Positions 39,195-56,899 of a DNA stretch of 64,000 bases are shown here, in pieces. The stretch comes from a virus (taxonomy: Duplodnaviria; Caudoviricetes), in the IMG/VR virus record IMGVR_UViG_3300020718_000009, positions 39,299 through 103,298 of that record; one strand, 5' to 3'. A program made the position numbers and the translations under genes. A model generated the notes under the pieces. That model saw only the letters and a program-made list of their open reading frames with translations, did not search any database and had not been told where the DNA came from. The first letter of the stretch is position 1; each line of letters starts with the position of its first letter.

Positions 39195-39751
39195 ACATTC
39201 AATGGGTATTAAGTGACAATTTAATATTAGATCCCGCTATTGATATAATGCGTATGAAGCGCAGTGGCGCTTTTTGGGGCTCTTGGAAAACCTGGCGAGC
39301 ATACAATACCGATAATGTTATTTGTCATGACAGCAATAAAGCAAAAGAACTTATTAAGCAAGCATTTCAAGCAACTTGCAATTTATACATACCAAATTCA
39401 GTTTATAAAGAATTAAGTCAACCTAAAGGTGTAAGATTGTATGAAGGTGATTTTATGGGTCACAATGTTAACAATCAAGATGAAATAGTAGCAATGAATT
39501 TGGCGGCGTCGATATGTGATGTTGTTTTGCTTGTTGGATTTGATTGGTCAGATTCCCCCAAATCTAAAGATAAACCAGAGGATATAACAATTCAAAACTA
39601 TAAAGGATTAGTGGCTCAGGCAATCAAATCTACTCCGCATGTACAATGGATTTTAGTAGATCATCCAAAAAAAATACGCAAAGATTTAAAAAAATTATCA
39701 AATATTGATAAAGACTCTTTTGATAACGTACTATCCATTCTAAACGGTTGA
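39191..39751 (+). CDS. Hypothetical protein (Rossmann-like)
   Basis: ATGA-coupled; VLLVGFD. Confidence 0.65.
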   Translation: MNIQWVLSDNLILDPAIDIMRMKRSGAFWGSWKTWRAYNTDNVICHDSNKAKELIKQAFQATCNLYIPNSVYKELSQPKGVRLYEGDFMGHNVNNQDEIVAMNLAASICDVVLLVGFDWSDSPKSKDKPEDITIQNYKGLVAQAIKSTPHVQWILVDHPKKIRKDLKKLSNIDKDSFDNVLSILNG

Positions 39752-48082: not shown

Positions 48083-48520
48083 ATGAATATTCAATTGGGA
48101 TATAACAAAAAGACCTATGGCTCACATGCCACTTACGCTAGGTTCGTACAAGCAGTTAATGATGGTGAAGCCATTCCTGTTGCCATGCGCCATGTTTGGG
48201 TGGGTAAGAACCATAGAACTGGGCGAGCAGGACACGATGCCATGCTGGCCATCTGTGGGGAAAAGTGTGCCAATCCTCGTTGCGGTCGTGTACTAGATTA
48301 TAGCTTAGGTGGCAATATCAAAGGCAAGAAAAAAGCCCCCGATACACAACCCTCCCTGGATCATATTATGCCCACAACACGTGGCGGGGCAGACTCCATT
48401 GAGAACTATCAAGTATTATGTACCCCCTGTAATACTGCCAAGAATGCTATGTGGGGACAAGAAGACGCAGAACGTTTACGTGGCTTAGCAGATATGATTC
48501 AAGGAGGCCAAAATGTCTAG
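48083..48520 (+). CDS. HNH endonuclease
   Basis: C..RC; SLDHIMPTTRGGADSIENYQVLCTPCN.AK. Confidence 0.85.
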   Translation: MNIQLGYNKKTYGSHATYARFVQAVNDGEAIPVAMRHVWVGKNHRTGRAGHDAMLAICGEKCANPRCGRVLDYSLGGNIKGKKKAPDTQPSLDHIMPTTRGGADSIENYQVLCTPCNTAKNAMWGQEDAERLRGLADMIQGGQNV

Positions 48521-48932
48521 AATTAGTTTAGCAAAACAGTACGCTCCTGTTTGTGCCCACCCTCATTGTAACAATAAGGTAAGTTATCACTCTAAATATA
48601 TTAAAACTGATGGCACCCCGGGCTGGCATTGGAAAACGTTTTGCGATCAACATCGTACTGTAAAGAGCGCAGACAGAGCGATCTTTATGCGGTCTAAAAA
48701 TGGATGTGAAAATAGATATGGTGATTTAGGGCTTACGTGGGTTTGTCGGGATCCTGATACTCCTAGTCTTACTACTGATCATTGGGACGGCAATAAGCAT
48801 AATAATGATCAAGATAATATAGTAATACTTTGTGCCAATTGTCATAATCGCAAAACAAAGTTGTTTGGCGATACTAGCACACGTTATAAGAACTATACAG
48901 AAAAGTTTGACGACTTCTTTGAATATACTTAA
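48513..48932 (+). CDS. HNH endonuclease with N-terminal Cys/His cluster
   Basis: CAHPHC...CDQH; DHWDGNKHNNDQDNIVILCANCHNRKT. Confidence 0.85.
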   Translation: MSRISLAKQYAPVCAHPHCNNKVSYHSKYIKTDGTPGWHWKTFCDQHRTVKSADRAIFMRSKNGCENRYGDLGLTWVCRDPDTPSLTTDHWDGNKHNNDQDNIVILCANCHNRKTKLFGDTSTRYKNYTEKFDDFFEYT

Positions 48933-49009
48933 TACACACAGTCCCGCACTATTGAACCCGACGACAATGGCGCGAAGCGCCTCCGCTCCAGACTACTGAA
49001 AGTACATAA

Positions 49010-49285
49010 ATGAAGACTCGTGAACACACTGACTCGCTGGGCAACGCCATACTTGTAGGACAACCCATAGCATTTACTCACTCTTATCTCAAAGGAGTTA
49101 AAATTGGAGTTGTGGTTAAACTAACTAAAGAGCGTGTTAAAATCCGCTATCGCTACGTTTGGCGAGATAAAGATGGTACAAACCATAAGGGTGAATATGA
49201 CACACTAATACAACCTAAGCGCACATTGGTATTGGCAGCGGCATTAGCACCCGCAGTTACCATGTATATGCTAAAGATGTCATAG
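49010..49285 (+). CDS. Hypothetical protein (SH3-like)
   Basis: DSLGN.I.VGQ.IAF. Confidence 0.65.
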   Translation: MKTREHTDSLGNAILVGQPIAFTHSYLKGVKIGVVVKLTKERVKIRYRYVWRDKDGTNHKGEYDTLIQPKRTLVLAAALAPAVTMYMLKMS

Positions 49286-49395
49286 TGTGACGCGTGTACT
49301 GATAACAGTCTTTTGGATACTAATAGTAATGTGTGTACCCTGGGGATTAGTATACTTTTTCATAGTGAGATCAATTCAAGTAACAGCAAAAAGAC

Positions 49396-49635
49396 ATGAT
49401 AACAATTGAATTAAACACTCGTCACAACCGTGTGGATATAGCTGAATACTGCCACGCTAATATTGGACCAAGACAGTACTGGCTACACAATCAAATAGGA
49501 GGGGAAAAGTGGCGTATATCAAGTGAAGTAAAACCCATAAACCCCGAGGTTAATTGGAAAATACAAAAGACTTATTGGTACTTGGAATTAAGCAATGAGC
49601 AAGATGCTGTTGGGTATATCCTAAAGTATATGTGA
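49396..49635 (+). CDS. Small DA-x2-(F/Y)-x-LK family protein
   Basis: C-terminus LSNEQDAVGYILKYM. Confidence 0.65.
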   Translation: MITIELNTRHNRVDIAEYCHANIGPRQYWLHNQIGGEKWRISSEVKPINPEVNWKIQKTYWYLELSNEQDAVGYILKYM

Positions 49636-50142
49636 AGTCTATATGCACAGGATTTAAAAAAATATGATCAAAAAAAAATTTGATCAGCCCTGTTTTATAT
49701 TAGTGAAAGTTTGAAACCCTGGGGGGTGTGGGGTAAAAAGCATTTTGCGGAGATTGACTTCGATACGTGGTCCGCTAAACCCCTAGGGTATTGTAGCTTT
49801 TCTTACCTACCCCCCGTCCTGAAAGTTTTCAACCCCTCCCCCCTGACTGCTACCGATTCGAGCTTCGACGTCTGCTCTAGCCCCTAAAAGATGTTAGTAA
49901 GCACTTACTTACACAGGGGGTTTTTACCCCTCGTCTAGCCCCCGGCAGAGTGTTGTATTTCCACAACGATAGTACACGGTTTGGCGCCTGGTCCCGGTTG
50001 ACTCTTTATTCTCGATGTGTTATACTGTAAGGTTCTCCTGGACGAGCCGCCCTGCCGCCTGGGTACCAATCCTGGATGTTTTGGTTGACTAGATAATCAC
50101 TAGGTTGTATACTGTATGTATATTAATTAACAAGGAGCCGTA
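49636..50142. other. Non-coding structured region with G/C tracts, palindromes and two promoters
   Basis: No ORF in the track; G6/C6 runs; AGTAAG-CA-CTTACT; operator 49952-49967; promoters 49998-50026 and 50085-50113. Confidence 0.6.
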
Positions 50143-50472
50143 ATGAAACTACAACAACAAGACCGCATTACATGGCATTCAGCCGCTGGCGTGCTGACCG
50201 GCACCATTGAGGCTATTGTATTAGCTGACAACGCCGCCGGACAAACTACACCCTGGATTGATGTGCGTGTAGAAGGCCGCGCTAACACCGTGCGCATTTG
50301 TGCTAATGACGGCTACTTACGGCAGATGCGTGTTGAGCTAGTGACTACTCGAGAAGACGGTTACGAAGACCTAGTAGAGCGTGTAAACATCATGACCGGC
50401 CTTAAGTATCAAGAGCCCCGCAACACTCCCGTGTTTATGTCGCCAGCTTGTGAATCTTACTGGAGTATGTAA
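50143..50472 (+). CDS. Early hypothetical protein
   Basis: Promoter + AAGGAG; C-terminal NTP.F.SP..ESYWSM. Confidence 0.8.
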   Translation: MKLQQQDRITWHSAAGVLTGTIEAIVLADNAAGQTTPWIDVRVEGRANTVRICANDGYLRQMRVELVTTREDGYEDLVERVNIMTGLKYQEPRNTPVFMSPACESYWSM

Positions 50473-50473
50473 T

Positions 50474-50638
50474 ATGATACTAGAACGTGTACGCTTAGAT
50501 TTAACCCCGGCTCAAGCAGAGTTAGTGCTAGCGAGCTTACGTGACGCACTAATGGCTCGTTACCAAGAGAACCGGGCGGACTCATCCGACAACTATCGAA
50601 TCCGCGCTGTAATCACTGATATCAAGGAGCAACTATAA
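50474..50638 (+). CDS. Small hypothetical protein
   Basis: GGAG RBS; MILERV. Confidence 0.65.
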   Translation: MILERVRLDLTPAQAELVLASLRDALMARYQENRADSSDNYRIRAVITDIKEQL

Positions 50639-50643
50639 TGGAT

Positions 50644-50711
50644 GTTGCAGAAATACAACAATATCAAACCCGGACCAAACGGTTGACATTTAATCCCGAA
50701 ACTGTTATACT
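50644..50711 (+). promoter_or_regulatory. Operator variant + sigma70 promoter
   Basis: GTTGC-N6-ACAAC 50644-50659; TTGACA-17-TATACT 50683-50711. Confidence 0.8.
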
Positions 50712-50735
50712 ATTAACATAGTAAAGGATAAAGAA

Positions 50736-50903
50736 ATGACAAAGACAACACTAACACTAACCCCTGAACAATCAAAGCTGTTAACCGCCGCGGTTAACGC
50801 TGAAATCATCAAGGGCGCAGGTACATTTTTAACCCCAATAGAAGTTATTGAATTGGGCCGTATATTAACGGTACTCAAATATAGTAATAAGGAGACTGTA
50901 TAA
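50736..50903 (+). CDS. 55-aa hypothetical protein (not in ORF track)
   Basis: AAGGA RBS behind promoter; MTKTTLTLTPEQ. Confidence 0.6.
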   Translation: MTKTTLTLTPEQSKLLTAAVNAEIIKGAGTFLTPIEVIELGRILTVLKYSNKETV

Positions 50904-51064
50904 TGAAACTAGAAACCGCCATTAAAACACTAATTAAAGAAGTTAACTTTCTAGGATACAAAAACCTGGGCGAGTTAGTGGAAGATATCGAGAAGTATCC
51001 ACTAGCTTATCCCCTGGCAGTAATGACAGCATTCCGTGTATACCGCGACGCGGCTTACATATAA
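50903..51064 (+). CDS. 53-aa hypothetical protein (not in ORF track)
   Basis: AAGGAG RBS; MKLETAIK. Confidence 0.65.
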   Translation: MKLETAIKTLIKEVNFLGYKNLGELVEDIEKYPLAYPLAVMTAFRVYRDAAYI

Positions 51065-51078
51065 AAAGGAGCACATTT

Positions 51079-51279
51079 ATGAACGCAAATGAACTATCTG
51101 ATGAATTAGCAAAAGTAATTGATGTCAGGCACTACGCTTCTGAAGTGTTGCGTAAAGAAATTATTACCATGCTACGCCAGCAACAGGTTGAAATAGAAGA
51201 ACTAAAAGAAAAAGATTTGAGAAAATCTATGGCTATTCGGTCTTTAAACACACAACTTAAAAAGGCTAATAAGAAATGA
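51079..51279 (+). CDS. Small coiled-coil protein (MNANEL...MLRQQQ family)
   Basis: AAGGAG RBS; paralogous to 51584. Confidence 0.7.
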   Translation: MNANELSDELAKVIDVRHYASEVLRKEIITMLRQQQVEIEELKEKDLRKSMAIRSLNTQLKKANKK

Positions 51280-51587
51280 GCTACCACGGAAAATTACAAG
51301 TATTAAAAAACGGTACAGCCGATGCAGAAATTCAATTGTGGGCTTATCAGCAAATAGAAACAATAGAATATTTGTACAAAAGGCATGACGAGCAACAAGC
51401 TGACCTTAAAGATGCTGATAAGTATGCGCTTGAACTTGAAAGACTTTACGAAGATGCCAAAGCTGAAATAGAAGCGTTGAAACAGGTACTACAGTCTATT
51501 GCCAACGAGCATGTTGAGCTTAGCCATGACAAGATTAAGTGGCAGTGCGATGACCATATTAGGTGGGCTAAGGAGGCGCTGAAATGA
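51276..51587 (+). CDS. Small coiled-coil protein
   Basis: ATGA-coupled; shares AEIEALK module. Confidence 0.7.
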   Translation: MSYHGKLQVLKNGTADAEIQLWAYQQIETIEYLYKRHDEQQADLKDADKYALELERLYEDAKAEIEALKQVLQSIANEHVELSHDKIKWQCDDHIRWAKEALK

Positions 51588-51784
51588 ACGCATATGAACT
51601 AGCAGACATAGTAGATCATTGGGCTTGGAGCGAAAGCGCAGAGTATTTAACTGATGCAGCCACCATGCTACGCCAGCAACAAGCTGAAATAGAAGCGTTG
51701 AAAGCCAAGCTAAAGCAATATCACTTAAAAGAAGATTTAGATAGAAACCTAAATTTAATTTATGGCAAGGAGTTTATTAAATGA
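51584..51784 (+). CDS. Small coiled-coil protein (MNAYEL...MLRQQQAEIEALK)
   Basis: ATGA-coupled; AGGAGG RBS. Confidence 0.7.
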   Translation: MNAYELADIVDHWAWSESAEYLTDAATMLRQQQAEIEALKAKLKQYHLKEDLDRNLNLIYGKEFIK

Positions 51785-52017
51785 ACAATGAACCAGTAGC
51801 GTGGATGTGTAAAGATGATGATGTTATTACAGATAAATTTAAGAAATCAGGTAAAGGTGGTGATTGTTCTGATTACAACATTCCACTCTACACCCACCCA
51901 GCAGACCGCATAGCTGAATTGGAACAAGCGTTAGAAAACATCATAGCTATTTCTGACAGAAAACATGACGCATGGGACAAGGCTAAAGAATTACTAAAGA
52001 AAGCGAGTGAGAAATGA
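51781..52017 (+). CDS. Small protein (EPVAW...PLYTHP family)
   Basis: ATGA-coupled; ends KKASEK. Confidence 0.7.
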   Translation: MNNEPVAWMCKDDDVITDKFKKSGKGGDCSDYNIPLYTHPADRIAELEQALENIIAISDRKHDAWDKAKELLKKASEK

Positions 52018-52103
52018 ACTTTATAAACTGGGTATTTGATGGCAGTTTTAAATGGTGGTTACTTGGTGCAGTTATTGTTTATATCATTGCTAGATTTAGT
52101 TAA
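52014..52103 (+). CDS. 29-aa single-TM peptide
   Basis: Starts at junction ATG; WWLLGAVIVYIIA. Confidence 0.55.
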   Translation: MNFINWVFDGSFKWWLLGAVIVYIIARFS

Positions 52104-52119
52104 GAAAGGCACAAGAGAA

Positions 52120-52281
52120 ATGAGTTCAATTATTCCAGCAAAAGAAGTAGCCAACAAAATTATGGAATGTTTAGAAGAATCTGTAGCAGATTTTCCTGAA
52201 GAAGAAAGGGAAGAAGCAAAGTGCAGAATATTAAATGCTTTTAGCGAGCAAATGTTTTGTGGAAAGGCACAAGAGAAATGA
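52120..52281 (+). CDS. 53-aa peptide
   Basis: Starts at junction ATG; ends GKAQEK. Confidence 0.6.
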   Translation: MSSIIPAKEVANKIMECLEESVADFPEEEREEAKCRILNAFSEQMFCGKAQEK

Positions 52282-52484
52282 GCCAAGAACCATGTAAAAA
52301 ATGCGGTGAATATCACAATAATTGCTATGAGTTAGCTGAACTAACAGATGAGGAAATACTACAAGCAAACCTAGAATTTGGTAAAGAGAATGGCGAAGAT
52401 TATTCAATGCTCACAATCGAAGATATAGAGCCTTTAATTGGTTTAGTTAAATTTATACTAAAGAAAGCGAGTGAGAAATCATGA
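52278..52484 (+). CDS. 68-aa peptide (CxxC; LTDEEI)
   Basis: Starts at junction ATG; ends KKASEKS. Confidence 0.6.
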   Translation: MSQEPCKKCGEYHNNCYELAELTDEEILQANLEFGKENGEDYSMLTIEDIEPLIGLVKFILKKASEKS

Positions 52485-52603
52485 AATTTATTGTTTGTTT
52501 AATCAGTTGGGTTTTAATTCCAGTAGCAATAGTTACTGTTGCCTATGAAGTGTCTAAGTGTTGGGTGGAATCAAGGCTTGATGGAAAGGCTAGTGAGAAA
52601 TGA
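52481..52603 (+). CDS. 40-aa single-TM peptide
   Basis: MKFIVCLISWVLIPVAIVTVAY; ends GKASEK. Confidence 0.55.
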   Translation: MKFIVCLISWVLIPVAIVTVAYEVSKCWVESRLDGKASEK

Positions 52604-52704
52604 ACAGCACATTTGTAGATTATTGTTTTGGGGCATGTTTGCTTATGGTTGGAATGGCTATGTTGATTATTTCTGTTAGTTTGGTCTGCGGTTTTGTTAA
52701 ATAA
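52600..52704 (+). CDS. 34-aa single-TM peptide
   Basis: MNSTFVDYCFGACLLMVGMAMLIISVSLVCGFVK. Confidence 0.55.
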   Translation: MNSTFVDYCFGACLLMVGMAMLIISVSLVCGFVK

Positions 52705-52719
52705 AAAGGCACAAGAGAA

Positions 52720-52821
52720 ATGAGCTTTATTGAATATTTACTTATTGTTATTTTGGTCATAGCCGCATTGCCAGTAATCGGAATGATTATTGCTAAATTT
52801 ATTGAAATGTTTGGTTATTAA
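52720..52821 (+). CDS. 33-aa single-TM peptide
   Basis: MSFIEYLLIVILVIAALPVIGMIIAKFIEMFGY. Confidence 0.55.
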   Translation: MSFIEYLLIVILVIAALPVIGMIIAKFIEMFGY

Positions 52822-52837
52822 GAAAGGCACAAGAGAA

Positions 52838-53053
52838 ATGAAAGAAGTTAAAATGCTATTAATGTCAATTATACTGTTAATGCCAATGGCGTTTGTCATA
52901 GCAGTATTTGTGCACATGGACAGAGAAATCCCTCAGCCAGCGGCGCAAGCGCAACCCCCAAGCGAGCGTGCCCCAGAATGGATAGTAAATGAACGTGGCC
53001 AACGCTGTATTCGTCAGCAAACGGGAGCAGACACAGTAGTTACTTGCGGGTAA
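52838..53053 (+). CDS. 71-aa membrane-anchored protein
   Basis: Starts at junction ATG; N-terminal TM; two C-terminal Cys. Confidence 0.6.
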   Translation: MKEVKMLLMSIILLMPMAFVIAVFVHMDREIPQPAAQAQPPSERAPEWIVNERGQRCIRQQTGADTVVTCG

Positions 53054-53434
53054 GCGGCGGCTAGTACAAGAAGTCGAGACGCTGCATGCACGAGGTTCGA
53101 CTCCGGCTGACAACGGTTAGACAACCCCTGAAGGCTGCTCTACGGTGGTAGAATGGTGGTGTGATCAAGATTTTTTGAAACGGAAGTGGACTCAAGGCTA
53201 TACTGCATGACTATGATTGCTATTTTTGAAGCCTTTCACCCCAACCCTGCCCAATCAAAATTCTACCCCATTTTACAAGCTTCGATTTCAACCATTTTGA
53301 CATTTTCTCCACACGAAAACATAATTCTGCCGGAATTATACTAACACCGGGGCCTTACAGTATAAAACACACCGAAATTCAACCCTATTTTTAACCAGTC
53401 AAAAATGCGTGTCCGGTCTGGTAACTCAAAGGCA

Positions 53435-53463
53435 TTGCGTGTCTCGCATAACGGTGTTATACT
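53435..53463 (+). promoter_or_regulatory. Probable sigma70 promoter
   Basis: TTGCGT-17-TATACT just before ATG 53470. Confidence 0.55.
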
Positions 53464-53469
53464 AGCACT

Positions 53470-53667
53470 ATGACAACTTTTGACTACTGTGTTAAATTTT
53501 CCCACTTTGATGTCCCCCAATGGACTAAGGCTGTAGCATATTGTCAAGAGTTAATCAGCAGCCGTCAATGTCGTATATACAGCAGTCGTACCAGTGTCAG
53601 TGAGGGATATCAACGAGAGTATTGTTTTGAGTTTCAGCACGGCCGTCATGCGCTAAAGTTCATGTAA
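53470..53667 (+). CDS. Small F-x-F...A-LK-F family protein
   Basis: YCFEFQHGRHALKFM. Confidence 0.6.
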   Translation: MTTFDYCVKFSHFDVPQWTKAVAYCQELISSRQCRIYSSRTSVSEGYQREYCFEFQHGRHALKFM

Positions 53668-53669
53668 CT

Positions 53670-53882
53670 ATGTCAATGAGTCAAGAACGTGTGCCAGTAG
53701 CTGTTCCAAAAGGCTCTAAGTCTTTGGCAGCTCGTGATTGGTGTTCGAGTAACTTGCGTTTATCTCAATGGCATCAATCTCGTAATAGTTATCACGGTAG
53801 TTTTACCCACGTTATATTTGAGTTTTATGATCCACATTATGATCCACACTTAGCCGCAGAGTTTGCGCTGAGATTTTGTTAA
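53670..53882 (+). CDS. Small F-x-F...A-x2-F-x-LR-F family protein
   Basis: WC...FEFYDPHYDPHLAAEFALRFC; 12-bp tandem duplication 53825-53848. Confidence 0.6.
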   Translation: MSMSQERVPVAVPKGSKSLAARDWCSSNLRLSQWHQSRNSYHGSFTHVIFEFYDPHYDPHLAAEFALRFC

Positions 53883-53886
53883 GGCT

Positions 53887-54078
53887 ATGATTTTTATGAA
53901 CCATTCAATTATTATACACAATGTCACTAACATGGATAAAAGTTATCGTGATATGAATTTATGGTGTGAAAAAAATATTAAAGGTTTACACGAAGTTTGG
54001 CAAGGTGTCAACAATGAAATGCATGTATACTTTAGCTCCAGTAAAGATGCTGCGTTTTTTGCCTTGAAATTTATGTGA
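53887..54078 (+). CDS. Small DA-x2-F-x-LK family protein
   Basis: WCEKNI...YFSSSKDAAFFALKFM. Confidence 0.65.
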   Translation: MIFMNHSIIIHNVTNMDKSYRDMNLWCEKNIKGLHEVWQGVNNEMHVYFSSSKDAAFFALKFM

Positions 54079-54086
54079 TGTCTGGT

Positions 54087-54430
54087 GCGTTGCACTTCGT
54101 GCTTAGTCTCTTATTCTATAGGCCAGTATGACTCTTATCAGTATAACGGAACGATTGGGTAGTTTTTATCAGGATGAGTTATATCGTAGTGATTTAGCTT
54201 GTATACTGCGAGAATTGGTAGAGTTAGTGGGACCTATAGATTATTCGACGCCACAAGTGTATCCCTTACTGGCTCGAGGGCAGGGATGGCGTGTTAAGTT
54301 TGGTGTTCCCCAGGATCGACAGCAGCATTATGTGGAGATTGATTCAGATCGGATGGCGGTGTTTTATATGTTAAAATACGGTGGTGTAAGGATAGTGGAA
54401 TAATGCGTCATGAGCGTTGCACTTCGTGCT
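54087..54430. repeat. 17-bp intergenic direct repeat GCGTTGCACTTCGTGCT (54087-54103, 54414-54430)
   Basis: Exact copies flanking ORF 54128-54403, each followed by ATTCTAT. Confidence 0.85.
54128..54403 (+). CDS. Small family protein
   Basis: G.GW...VEIDSDRMAVFYMLKYG. Confidence 0.65.
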   Translation: MTLISITERLGSFYQDELYRSDLACILRELVELVGPIDYSTPQVYPLLARGQGWRVKFGVPQDRQQHYVEIDSDRMAVFYMLKYGGVRIVE

Positions 54431-54457
54431 GTTTCTTTAATTCTATGGGGATGATTT

Positions 54458-54721
54458 GTGGATAATCAGCGTGAATATTGGCGGCAGGATAATCGTCGGG
54501 TCGAGCAAGAAATCGCGTGGGGAATACACTTAGAATCACTGGTCAGTCAGGGCGCATGGCACAAATATACACTATCACGCTATATGGATAACCACCATGC
54601 TATAGATATTCGTTCTTGGGTTGAAGCTAATTGTCGGGGTCGTACTGAGCAAAATTATCGTTCTTGGTACTTTGAGCTGGCGGAAGACGCTGTATTGTTT
54701 ACGTTAAAATGGGCGGGTTAG
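54458..54721 (+). CDS. Small DA-x2-F-x-LK-W family protein
   Basis: WVEANC...WYFELAEDAVLFTLKW. Confidence 0.65.
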   Translation: MDNQREYWRQDNRRVEQEIAWGIHLESLVSQGAWHKYTLSRYMDNHHAIDIRSWVEANCRGRTEQNYRSWYFELAEDAVLFTLKWAG

Positions 54722-54733
54722 ATAAGTAATAGT

Positions 54734-54970
54734 ATGGATGAAACTTGGGAAGATTATTCGCTTAGTGTTATGAGGATGGAGTTGGGTCGTGCGCTGATTA
54801 AATTAAGTCGTAGCAACGATGTCAAGCAGGAGTTGGCAGTAATGAGTCAGCGTATAGTAAATAAATTAAATAATCGTGTATTTTCAGCTATTAAATCAGT
54901 TGAAAACACATATAACAGCCAAGAATCTCAAGCATCATATCGTCATAACTATCAGGATCGTTGGAAATGA
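54734..54970 (+). CDS. Hypothetical protein
   Basis: ATAAGTA box at 54722; overlaps next start. Confidence 0.55.
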   Translation: MDETWEDYSLSVMRMELGRALIKLSRSNDVKQELAVMSQRIVNKLNNRVFSAIKSVENTYNSQESQASYRHNYQDRWK

Positions 54971-55491
54971 GTTTACGAGAATTAACTGGGGCGCAACACA
55001 AGCTGGCGGAATCTACACCATTTATGACAGCAGTATTTCGTGGTAATTTACCCTTGAAAGCATGGTCGAATTTTGTCTATGATAAATCATTATTTTATCC
55101 TGTAATAGAAGCCAAAGCTCGTACACTGGGCATATTGGAAGATTTACAGGGAATTGAACGCAGTCGAGAATTGCTGGTAGATTTCCAAGAATTATCCAAC
55201 ACAGAATATTCATATAATTATAGTTCAGCGGCCCAGGCCTATTACGAATACTTATTGGGATTAACATATCACGATGACGTGCTGGCTCACTTGTATGTTT
55301 GGCACATGGGCGATTTATATGGTGGGCAAATGATTAAAAAATTAATTCCCGGCAGACATTATAGTTTAGAATTTGCCAATCCCGAAGAATTAAAAACTAA
55401 TTTACGCAATAAATTGAGTGACAGCATGGCCAGTGAAGCTAATTTAGCATTTAGTTGGGCAATTCGTATATTAAATGAATATTCAGTATGA
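54967..55491 (+). CDS. Heme oxygenase
   Basis: LRELT...H..AE (proximal His); LAHLYVWHMGDLYGGQMI; EANLAF. Confidence 0.88.
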   Translation: MSLRELTGAQHKLAESTPFMTAVFRGNLPLKAWSNFVYDKSLFYPVIEAKARTLGILEDLQGIERSRELLVDFQELSNTEYSYNYSSAAQAYYEYLLGLTYHDDVLAHLYVWHMGDLYGGQMIKKLIPGRHYSLEFANPEELKTNLRNKLSDSMASEANLAFSWAIRILNEYSV

Positions 55492-55919
55492 AAATAAAAG
55501 AATTAAAAGACGTAATTTATTTTGCTTATGGGCATAATTCAAATTCTCATGTAATGATGGATCGTTGTCCCACAGCTGAATATATGGGTTTGGGAATATT
55601 AAAGAATTTTGAATTGCGTATCCATCATTATGCTGACATTGAATATCATTTGGGCTCAGAAGTCGTGGGAGTATTATGGCGTATTGACCACGATGATTTA
55701 TCGGTATTAGATTATGATGAGGGTTTACATAAAGATTACGATAGAATTCGTGTGGAAGTTGTAAATGAATCTGGAAAAATTGTTCCTTGTTATGCTTATA
55801 TTATGGATCCCGAACATGAGGTTTTTAAACACAAAGAAAAATCATATATTCTCAGCGTTGCTAGGGGATATCTGGAACACGGAATTCCCATTGAGCAATT
55901 AAAATCCGCATTAAATTAA
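55488..55919 (+). CDS. Gamma-glutamylcyclotransferase (AIG2-like)
   Basis: YFAYG.N; V.GVLW.I; LD.DEG; Y.R. Confidence 0.8.
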   Translation: MKIKELKDVIYFAYGHNSNSHVMMDRCPTAEYMGLGILKNFELRIHHYADIEYHLGSEVVGVLWRIDHDDLSVLDYDEGLHKDYDRIRVEVVNESGKIVPCYAYIMDPEHEVFKHKEKSYILSVARGYLEHGIPIEQLKSALN

Positions 55920-55923
55920 ATTG

Positions 55924-55952
55924 TTGACTAATACCATTTAATTTAGTATAAT
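55924..55952 (+). promoter_or_regulatory. sigma70 promoter
   Basis: TTGACT-17-TATAAT. Confidence 0.75.
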
Positions 55953-55957
55953 TTAAT

Positions 55958-56899
55958 ATGGATAAAATCAAACGAGTTAACGACGATTTGGAATTAATTA
56001 CCATTGATGACATCGTTAATCATAAAAGAATTACCGACCAAGAATTAAATATTGAATTAAATCAATTAAATCGTTTTAAAGGTACAGAAAACGAAAATAA
56101 TTTCTGGGGAAATAGATTTCTTTATCATTTCCAATTTGCGAATTTATTACATTGTACTAGATTACGTTCAGGCGCGCCCCGTGAAACAATATATGAAATA
56201 TGGGCAGATCCCGTAAAAAGAGCTCATTTAATTGACCAAACTCGTAAACGCAATCGCGGGGGTCGAGTTCCTGCTAATAATGTATTTGAAGCATATAGAA
56301 TTAATACTGGTTCTATTGTTATGTTTAAATCAACTACAGCAAAATACTTATATAAGAAATATAATGCCAAAAGTGTGCTAGATCCCACAGCTGGTTGGGG
56401 CGGCCGTATGTTGGGTGCTTGGTCGCTGGGCATAGATTATACGGGAATTGATACTAATATAGAAATGAAGCCAGCTTACGATGAAATGCTGGATTTTCTC
56501 GAGAATAAAACATATTATGGCAATGAATTATTCGCCATGGTTAATACATCACGATTGAATATGATATGGGATTCCTGTTTAAATGTAGATTTCAGTAAAA
56601 TTGATTATGATTTTGTACTAACTTCTCCACCTTATATCAATATGGAATTATATCGTAAAATGGAATTTTGGTCTTCGGATAAACAATTTTATTTGGAATT
56701 CTTTATTCCATTATGGGCAAAATGTGTCAAACACATTAAACGGGGTGGGCATGTGGCTTTTAATATAAGTCCCAAAATGTATGATGATGCCGTTAAATGG
56801 GGATTAACTCCCTGTGACACAGAAGAGGAATTATTACAGCAATTGGGCCAAGCAAAGGGTCGTAAACGCAAAGATAAAATATATATTTGGAATTGTTAA
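55958..56899 (+). CDS. Amino (N4-C/N6-A) DNA methyltransferase
   Basis: VLDPTAGWGGR (motif I), YTGID and TSPPY (motif IV). Confidence 0.85.
   Translation: MDKIKRVNDDLELITIDDIVNHKRITDQELNIELNQLNRFKGTENENNFWGNRFLYHFQFANLLHCTRLRSGAPRETIYEIWADPVKRAHLIDQTRKRNRGGRVPANNVFEAYRINTGSIVMFKSTTAKYLYKKYNAKSVLDPTAGWGGRMLGAWSLGIDYTGIDTNIEMKPAYDEMLDFLENKTYYGNELFAMVNTSRLNMIWDSCLNVDFSKIDYDFVLTSPPYINMELYRKMEFWSSDKQFYLEFFIPLWAKCVKHIKRGGHVAFNISPKMYDDAVKWGLTPCDTEEELLQQLGQAKGRKRKDKIYIWNC

Follow-up and report, generated by a model that had tools for sequence, protein, structure and literature searches.

Introduction

In the modular theory of phage genomes, short homology at module boundaries (boundary or linker sequences) directs general recombination between modules. 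In phage Island3, the last 18 codons are common to gp67 and gp68, and the inserted gene carries the C-terminal ~50 bp of the upstream gene (PMC3029335). Later work regarded such linkers as rare and took illegitimate recombination, with subsequent selection, as the standard explanation (PMC3029335). The promoter-early stem-loop (PeSL) cassettes of T4-type phages (Arbiol et al. 2010, PMC2839356; Comeau et al. 2014, PMC4122927) consist of short conserved stretches that separate small, non-essential genes of hyperplastic regions and at which otherwise unrelated genes undergo homologous exchange. The start-associated sequences (SAS) of cluster K mycobacteriophages (Pope et al. 2011, PMC3203893) are 13 bp long (GGGATAGGAGCCC), lie 3-7 bp from the start codon and occur 11-19 times per genome across the right arm of one phage cluster. 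Here we analysed 64,000 nucleotides of a Caudoviricetes contig from a metagenome (IMG/VR record IMGVR_UViG_3300020718_000009, positions 39,299 to 103,298; this whole stretch is called the window below), in which an array of small genes is held together by a recurring junction block. The block, 19-40 bases long, closes one small gene and opens the next; its full unit is TTTGCTAGAGCAATACTAAGAAAGGCACAAGAGAAATGA.

Our verdict is that the locus represents homology-block shuffling of small early genes, which is a variant of the PeSL and boundary-sequence kind of shuffling and not an integron. As with the PeSLs, the repeats are points of insertion, deletion and replacement between relatives, and the array is situated in a 7.4-kb region that relatives lack. 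A PeSL, however, is an intergenic early promoter with a terminator stem-loop, whereas the junction contains neither, is mostly coding, belongs to the level of translation (stop, Shine-Dalgarno (SD) site, start) and is common to different phage lineages. The SAS are likewise asymmetric, keep one orientation, stand directly before the ATG of non-structural genes of different families and overlap the position of the ribosome-binding site, and the upstream stop codon often falls inside them. In contrast to the SAS, the copies found here are clustered (1-8), 17-40 bases long, mostly a translated tail, present in unrelated phages and located at recombination breakpoints. As expected of a linker, the same sequence stands between non-homologous modules and homology breaks there above elsewhere; the difference is that one and the same linker is found hundreds of times in different lineages and brings expression signals with it. 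The array also resembles an integron in its one-directional promoterless cassettes of variable content behind one promoter (50683-50711, a consensus match only), but no integrase and no attC fold were found here, and the junction is coding. The adhesins of T-even tail fibres are shuffled by the swapping of conserved motifs (His boxes, glycine-rich motifs). In these adhesins, in-gene conserved blocks flank unrelated, independently assorting segments, as in the PVAW/LTDEEI gene family described below; they are, however, large structural host-range proteins within one phage group, whereas the genes here are small, of unknown function, and their terminal block doubles as the gene junction. Limited literature searches gave no description of the block or of the family.

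Anatomy of the junction in the window

Seven consecutive starts (52014, 52120, 52278, 52481, 52600, 52720 and 52838; spacing 106, 158, 203, 119, 120 and 118 bp) are associated with the junction, exactly as reported in a first-pass annotation that had been made from the letters of the window. Allele A of the junction, AAAGGCACAAGAGAAATGA, is exact at 52105, 52263, 52705 and 52823, and 0 of 100 dinucleotide shuffles reached four matches. Allele B, AAAGCGAGTGAGAAAT, was located at 52000 and 52464, and two more variants are AAAGGCTAGTGAGAAATGA at 52585 and AAAGGCTAATAAGAAATGA at 51261, the latter being the copy that the annotation had described as weaker. The total is four exact and four variant copies, all eight within 1.6 kb. 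In the rest of the 103-kb contig there is no site with 3 or fewer mismatches to the junction, and the nearest one outside the array (window 29224) has 4 mismatches.

The core of the junction, TAAGAAAGGCACAAGAGAAATGA, provides TAA in one frame, TGA in the second and the ATG of the next gene in the third. The junction thus supplies the ready-made coupled start that had been proposed for each gene. The reading frames of four upstream genes continue across the junction, with the C-termini ..KKASEK, ..GKAQEK, ..KKASEKS and ..GKASEK, whereas three end before it (TAA at 52101, 52702 and 52819), and all three of these non-coding copies are exact; the KA(Q/S)EK tails and the exact copies behind a stop had both been recognised earlier. 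The AAGG of the junction is 10 nt 5' of the ATG, and the AAGGAG sites of genes 50903, 51584 and 51781 are spaced identically. Allele B keeps the peptide KKASEK and has lost the AAGG. Because the frame of the downstream ATG also has no stop codon within the junction (..KKGTREM..), the longest-ORF calls extend back to upstream TTG starts and give proteins of 81, 75 and 87 aa, which accounts for the mis-started micro-genes in the list of open reading frames. Homologues of g52838 in other contigs are called at 67-73 aa, not 87.

Five of the cargo peptides, the number previously taken to be single-transmembrane (TM) proteins, contain a hydrophobic segment; the Kyte-Doolittle maxima over 17 residues are 1.6 for g52014 and 2.6-3.2 for g52481, g52600, g52720 and g52838. 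The cargo had also been called unrelated, which does not apply to g51781 and g52278, as both belong to one modular family. After the promoter that heads the array, the next comparable sites on the + strand are found at 53175 and 53297 only.

Distribution of the junction among phages

Carrier loci were collected through the junction motif, and the consensus and the edge statistics were calculated over 203 copies. The 17-mer AAGGCACAAGAGAAATG was detected in at least 120 IMG/VR contigs, with 1-6 clustered copies each and in many of them with 2-6 copies 100-500 bp apart, and scans with peptide patterns revealed at least 598 stretches. The consensus is TTTGCTAGAGCAATACTAAGA plus AAGGCACAAGAGAAATGA. 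Conservation is 84-100% from TAAGA through ATGA (84-96% for TAAGA and 96% for the A after ATG) and drops to the background level at the next base. Every copy lies on the coding strand and borders on an ATG, in 96% of cases as ATGA. The upstream gene ends in ..RKAQEK-stop through the junction in 173 of the 203 copies and stops at the TAA of TAAGA in 18. Discrete nucleotide alleles recur, and allele B of the window was found nine further times in other loci.

A tblastx match of any kind to the window contig was present in 14 of the 120 carrier loci, nearly always at window 51.0-52.2 kb, and the remaining genes of the carriers are unlike those of this contig. Judged by this gene content, the carriers are otherwise unrelated to the window phage, and the junction is common to different phage lineages. 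The carriers include complete genomes of 37 kb and 65 kb with direct terminal repeats (DTR) that contain 1-4 copies within about 1 kb, and the same arrangements recur across independent samples. The window contig, which is 29% complete according to CheckV, encodes ribonucleotide reductase, DNA ligase and a DnaB-like helicase; the Pfam models of the T4 capsid and portal gave no match in it and left the control genomes equally unmatched. When 185,579 species genomes were searched with a 23-mer of the block, it was found in 10 contigs of metagenome-assembled genomes only, five of them in betaproteobacterial/Polynucleobacter bins. These contigs are most likely mis-binned phage DNA, and a betaproteobacterial host is a guess. 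Public phage genomes gave a single match, 140 bp long, to the MLRQQQAEIE block listed in Table 1.

Two side observations concern the form of the joint. In the locus L161 (~560-600), after the homologue of g52014, the junction is shortened to TAAGGAAGAGAAATGA, which suggests that the block lost an internal part but retained TAA and ATGA. A second type of junction, TGGGCTAAGGAGGCGCTGAAATGA (..WAKEALK-stop followed by an ATGA start), is located at window 51565-51600 and has a 94% match in L100. Since this joint is common to the window and L100, the 17-mer block is not the sole recurring joint.

The modular gene family and its frozen blocks

The junction was found at the 3' end of a modular family with the order MNNEPVAW - variable - PLYTHPAKTLTDEEI - variable - (D/E)FARAILRKAQEK, which is joined by ATGA to the next start. 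The upstream genes at the junctions are mostly members of this PVAW/LTDEEI family, for which the protein collection contains 4453 or more clusters (90% identity), each metagenomic and without a name. By sequence comparison, the junction block thus originates as the 3' terminus (..FARAILRKAQEK-stop) of these small phage genes, a modular family of very large size. Within the family, the N- and C-segments assort independently between the invariant blocks, so that the genes are intragenic mosaics. Unrelated proteins, TM peptides included, carry only (G/R/E/W)KAQEK, which is encoded by the same bases (the last 17-23 bases).

Searches of Pfam and PHROGs with 10 array proteins and 30 family members gave no match above the curated cut-offs. 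In the ESM Atlas, only viral clusters without names were retrieved, and PF26207 at 0.75 is a lead only. An AF2 model of a family member (pLDDT 77) predicts a three-strand sheet and two helices and places the junction tail in the C-terminal helix; this model had no match in the PDB at E up to 0.001. Some PVAW/LTDEEI members contain a zinc-ribbon-like insert, C..CG....H.C.

To count codon fixation, 71 tails were selected by a degenerate peptide pattern. Every codon was 93-100% fixed in these tails, compared with a background use of 18-67%; for example, ATA was used in 71/71 against 25% in the background and AGA in 71/71 against 28%. Blocks outside the search pattern are equally frozen, as found for FARAILR (6 of 7 codons at 80/80), LYTHPAKTLTDEEI, MNNEPVAW and MNANELA, and the segments between the frozen blocks are unrelated in sequence and length. 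The first-pass annotation had placed the conservation of the junction at the DNA/RNA level, and the exact non-coding copies and the frozen synonymous sites both agree with this. Point divergence cannot produce blocks that stay frozen while the segments between them are unrelated and differ in length; this pattern requires recombination at or near the blocks.

Breakpoints at the junction

The blastn matches between loci have 6713 internal right ends, and 1883 of these fall at +15 to +24 of the motif, i.e. at the ATGA. We then compared called gene junctions in pairs of contigs in which one 200-nt flank was at least 92% identical; controls that used all open frames were too noisy. The other flank was unrelated in 38 of the 41 pairs at motif junctions (3 related), whereas at ordinary junctions of the same loci it was unrelated in 25 of 121 (96 related). 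When flanks were dereplicated by clustering at 90% identity, more than one right partner was observed for 13 of 15 left-flank clusters at motif junctions and for 21 of 70 at ordinary junctions. Across the 203 copies, the junctions join 146 distinct pairs of upstream and downstream families. The enrichment of breakpoints at the junction is strong evidence but short of formal proof, because the pairs are non-independent and the loci were found through the motif.

The micro-genes of the window show the same behaviour. Different neighbours are found in other contigs for g52014, g52481 and g52600; homologues of g52481 and g52600 (47-73% aa identity) are present in five contigs, where the neighbours differ in each contig and the junction is mostly at the boundaries. 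Conservation of these peptides of 29-40 aa is the sole evidence so far for their translation. Since gene order breaks exactly at the junction, the junction looks like a natural linker for swaps of small genes. A comparison of cassette order between relatives had been suggested as a check on the first-pass annotation; the order turned out not to be fixed and the breakpoints to be enriched at the junction, which favours shuffling.

The insert and the relatives of the window

Two relatives, L145 and L146, which were found through homologues of g52838, contain a homologue of g50903 that is followed directly by the homologue of g52838 via an ordinary site, TAAAAAGGAGTCAAAATGAAAG. Both align with the window up to 51071 and again from 52836, indicating that window 51072-52835 is an insert. 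At the right end of the insert, the last junction copy is fused to the resident ATG of g52838 and displaces that gene's own SD site. The insert is a mosaic itself, since the homologues of g52014, g52481 and g52600 occur elsewhere with other neighbours. In the distant relatives L138-L140, the homologue of 48499 joins the homologue of 55964 directly, and both the 7.4-kb region and the motif are absent. Two junction copies are present in a further relative, L033, at another genomic location. By these alignments, window 48500-55960 is a hyperplastic region. From this region, only the homologue of 50063-50273 is retained in L136 and L143.

Directly 3' of the array, the non-coding window 53054-53470 is 75-84% conserved at the nucleotide level in L145 and L146. 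It holds a tRNA T-arm-like sequence, GGTTCGACTCC (about 53100), and consensus-like sigma70 promoters at 53175-53204 and 53297-53325. ARAGORN and Rfam detected no tRNA or RNA family in the window, nor in 52950-53600 at E up to 1, and candidate identities of the region are a degenerate tRNA, a small RNA of unknown kind and a regulatory region. Window 53470-54078 contains three tandem paralogous small ORFs of 65, 70 and 63 aa that end in ..HALKFM, ..FALRFC and ..FFALKFM, respectively, and a homologue of the first one is present in L145.

Recombination genes and signals at the junctions

In 22 loci, a gene for a Sak-like single-strand annealing protein (SSAP) precedes the array by 0.5-5.8 kb, and in 16 loci an exonuclease gene precedes it by 1-3 kb. 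Recombination of diverged DNA substrates has been reported for SSAPs (PMC3945230, PMC5499656). The window contig encodes a UvsX-like RecA-family recombinase at G000:30752-31741 (phrog_97, E 2.7e-56), 8.5 kb before the window. Neither these UvsX-like and Sak-like genes nor the finding that the junction is the 3' end of a large family and occurs in hundreds of contigs of other lineages had been part of the first-pass annotation. The one-strand order of Sak-like SSAP, exonuclease and junction array is recurrent (22 carrier loci, e.g. L034:4055-4756 and L064:6356-7153), a family A DNA polymerase is often 0-5 kb from such loci, and the carriers also encode helicases.

The tyrosine recombinase model PF00589, which matched 14 of 14 control genomes, gave no match in the 103-kb contig; since this contig is only about 29% of a genome, the absence of an integrase is not proven. 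Among the neighbours in the 120 carrier loci, general recombination and replication genes are the commonest and integrases are not. No inverted repeat or attC-like fold was detected at the window junctions, and RNA folding was weaker than in shuffled sequences in 5 of 7 junction contexts (z +1.2 to +1.7), with no common hairpin. At none of the junction copies in the window was a promoter-like or terminator-like site found. Two further readings of the block were tried and discarded: a promoter in the extended block (sigma70 or MotA-box-like TTTGCT) was rejected on its spacing by inspection, and the core site of attC (GTTRRRY) fits one copy only, by chance.

Table 1. Coordinates of the array, the junction copies, the homology blocks and the genes discussed in the text (window numbering)
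Feature	Position	Strand	Remarks
Array of 13 small genes (29-103 aa)	50736..53053	+	mostly ATGA stop/start overlaps
Sigma70-like promoter heading the array	50683..50711	+	TTGACA-17-TATACT, TG extended; 11/12, consensus match only
Weak junction variant AAAGGCTAATAAGAAATGA	51261..51279	+	..KKANKK-stop; ATGA start of g51276
Junction allele B, TACTAAAGAAAGCGAGTGAGAAATGA	51992..52017	+	..LLKKASEK-stop; start of g52014
Exact allele A, non-coding copy after the TAA of g52014	52099..52123	+	start of g52120
Exact allele A, read as ..GKAQEK-stop	52263..52281	+	start of g52278
Allele B with ATCATGA	52456..52484	+	..ILKKASEKS-stop; start of g52481
Junction variant AAAGGCTAGTGAGAAATGA	52585..52603	+	..GKASEK-stop; start of g52600
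Exact allele A, non-coding copy after the TAA of g52600	52702..52723	+	start of g52720
Exact allele A, non-coding copy after the TAA of g52720	52817..52841	+	in place of the relatives' ordinary SD site before g52838
Homology block AAATGAACAATGAACCAGTAGCGTGGATG (MNNEPVAWM)	51779..51807	+	fixed codons; common to 50 other loci
Homology block ..ATGCTACGCCAGCAACAAGCTGAAATAGAAG.. (MLRQQQAEIE)	51662..51704	+	second copy at 51166-51208; 31 other loci and phage record MW202753
g51781, 78 aa, PVAW..LYTHP..tail family member	51781..52017	+	
g52014, 29-aa hydrophobic micro-gene	52014..52103	+	L161: 100% aa, 97.7% nt, other neighbours
g52481, 40-aa single-TM micro-gene	52481..52603	+	L183 homologue, 62% aa, between other genes
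g52600, 34-aa single-TM micro-gene	52600..52704	+	5 homologues, 47-73% aa (F.DYCFG..LIISV.LV.G.IK), each in a different context
g52838, resident 71-aa TM protein 3' of the insert	52838..53053	+	relatives' homologues 77-88% aa
Insert, 1764 bp, 11 small genes	51072..52835	+	without counterpart in L145 and L146

Discussion

We consider it probable that the junction arrays arise by homology-block (linker) recombination through the phages' general recombination proteins, and that the block doubles as a coupled stop/start. Co-infecting phages would pair at the junction block and at the MNNEPVAW, PLYTHPAKTLTDEEI and MLRQQQAEIE blocks, and the DNA between two blocks would move as a cassette, so that small early genes may be exchanged, inserted or deleted by homologous or short-homology recombination. 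A moved cassette would be expressed at once, because the block ends the upstream gene and starts the downstream one, and repeated exchange would keep the block sequences identical (concerted evolution). The enzymes are likely to be the phages' own Sak-like annealing protein and exonuclease and, in the window contig, the UvsX-like recombinase; a site-specific integrase is not indicated. In the window, the 11-gene cassette block at 51072-52835 would have been inserted before the resident gene. Of the capture and reshuffling system that the first-pass annotation had envisaged, the reshuffling is upheld by the breakpoints, the empty site in relatives and the other neighbours of the micro-genes, whereas the integron-like character is not supported, as no tyrosine recombinase was found in the 103-kb contig and no attC-like fold at the junctions. 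The description of the peptides as micro-effectors is a guess.

Several points weigh against this explanation. The anatomy, spread, frozen codons, breakpoint enrichment and empty site are observed, whereas the act of exchange and the enzyme are inferred. A length of 17-23 bases is short for an exchange of the RecA/UvsX type. At its left edge, the insert has an ordinary AAAGGAG site in place of a junction copy, and a search for a donor of this left joint, GGAGCACATTTATGAACGC, found none. Only 1-4 junction copies are present in each complete carrier. The breakpoint comparison involves non-independent pairs, motif-ascertained loci and small dereplicated numbers, the control junctions are already 21-37% discordant, and selection by itself leaves surviving breakpoints at gene boundaries, so that part of the enrichment could be survivorship. 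Since allele B keeps the peptide and loses the AAGG, it speaks for some protein-level constraint and for no strict Shine-Dalgarno role of the block. The frozen synonymous sites could also mirror a cis-acting function of the RNA or DNA.

The block might instead be mainly a cis-acting expression signal, acting by termination-reinitiation or bound by a factor (a translational repressor, a nuclease or a small RNA), that co-regulates small early genes, in which case shuffling would be a side effect of the sequence identity of the block. Its fixed position against the ATG in one orientation (96% ATGA), the AAGG at the canonical 10-nt spacing, the unstructured junction contexts, the persistence of exact copies where they are non-coding and the precedent of the cluster K mycobacteriophage SAS (PMC3203893) are consistent with such a role. 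It is nevertheless unlikely to be the main one: a complete genome contains 1-4 clustered copies only, ordinary SD sites precede other members of these gene families (and g52838 itself in relatives), allele B is without AAGG, and mid-gene blocks far from starts are equally codon-frozen, which a start signal cannot explain. We give still less weight to the view that the block has no specialty at the DNA level and is the conserved C-terminal helix of one family, in which identical codons result from the recent descent of a young, fast-spreading family. Such descent is in line with the 173 of 203 copies that read ..RKAQEK-stop, with the conservative variation at the protein level (RKASEK, KKASEK, KKAQEK) and with the position of the tail in the AF2 model. 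It does not account for unrelated proteins, TM peptides included, in which just the last 5-6 residues are present in the same bases, nor for non-coding copies that are exact; and unrelated inter-block segments next to block codons that are 93-100% fixed cannot be produced by point divergence without recombination.

An integron-like system, in which a site-specific recombinase captures cassettes at the junction as its att site, would fit the one-directional promoterless array of variable content behind a single promoter, and one report places integrons in phage genomes (PMC9892861). We regard it as very improbable, since no tyrosine recombinase was found in the 103-kb contig (only about 29% of a genome), the junctions are mostly coding and have no inverted repeat or hairpin, and the commonest neighbours in the carriers are general recombination and replication genes, not integrases. 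It is hardly credible that the arrangements are artefacts of metagenome assemblers that mis-joined contigs at a common repeat of 20-40 bases. All data do come from metagenome assembly, and the motif is at or close to the end of many contigs (e.g. L011, L022, L028, L018 and L026), but assemblers usually break contigs at repeats and do not mis-join them. The blocks are also shorter than the usual final k-mers of assemblers. Moreover, the same arrangements are found in independent samples, complete DTR genomes carry arrays, and assembly cannot create codon-frozen blocks.

Beyond linker recombination at individual loci, we put forward, tentatively and with more doubt than confidence, a community-wide 'exchange code'. 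Invariant blocks of 25-50 bases, namely the junction and at least three in-gene blocks, might be kept identical across unrelated co-occurring phages so that annealing-type recombinases can swap whole small genes and segments of proteins with the reading frame preserved and expression provided from the outset. Such a code would be a recombinase-light functional analogue of the integron with a pool of more than 4000 gene variants, probably for host takeover or defence evasion, and selection would act on evolvability, i.e. on recombinogenic blocks, and not on the peptide or its translation.

Boundary sequences (PMC3029335), PeSLs (PMC2839356, PMC4122927) and relaxed recombination by Rad52-like proteins (PMC3945230) are known already. 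What is new is the form, a translated stop/start joint that is found across unrelated lineages and is among a few invariant blocks serving thousands of gene variants. Here a single linker recurs hundreds of times in lineages that otherwise share nothing, with a measurable enrichment of breakpoints and a built-in stop/start, and the old question of linkers thus becomes testable on a defined sequence. The mis-starting of micro-genes by ORF callers is explained by the same joint. The block further delimits a protein family of small phage genes that is very large and wholly uncharacterised and whose segments assort independently, and it provides a practical handle for fishing the accessory-gene pool of these phages from metagenomes.

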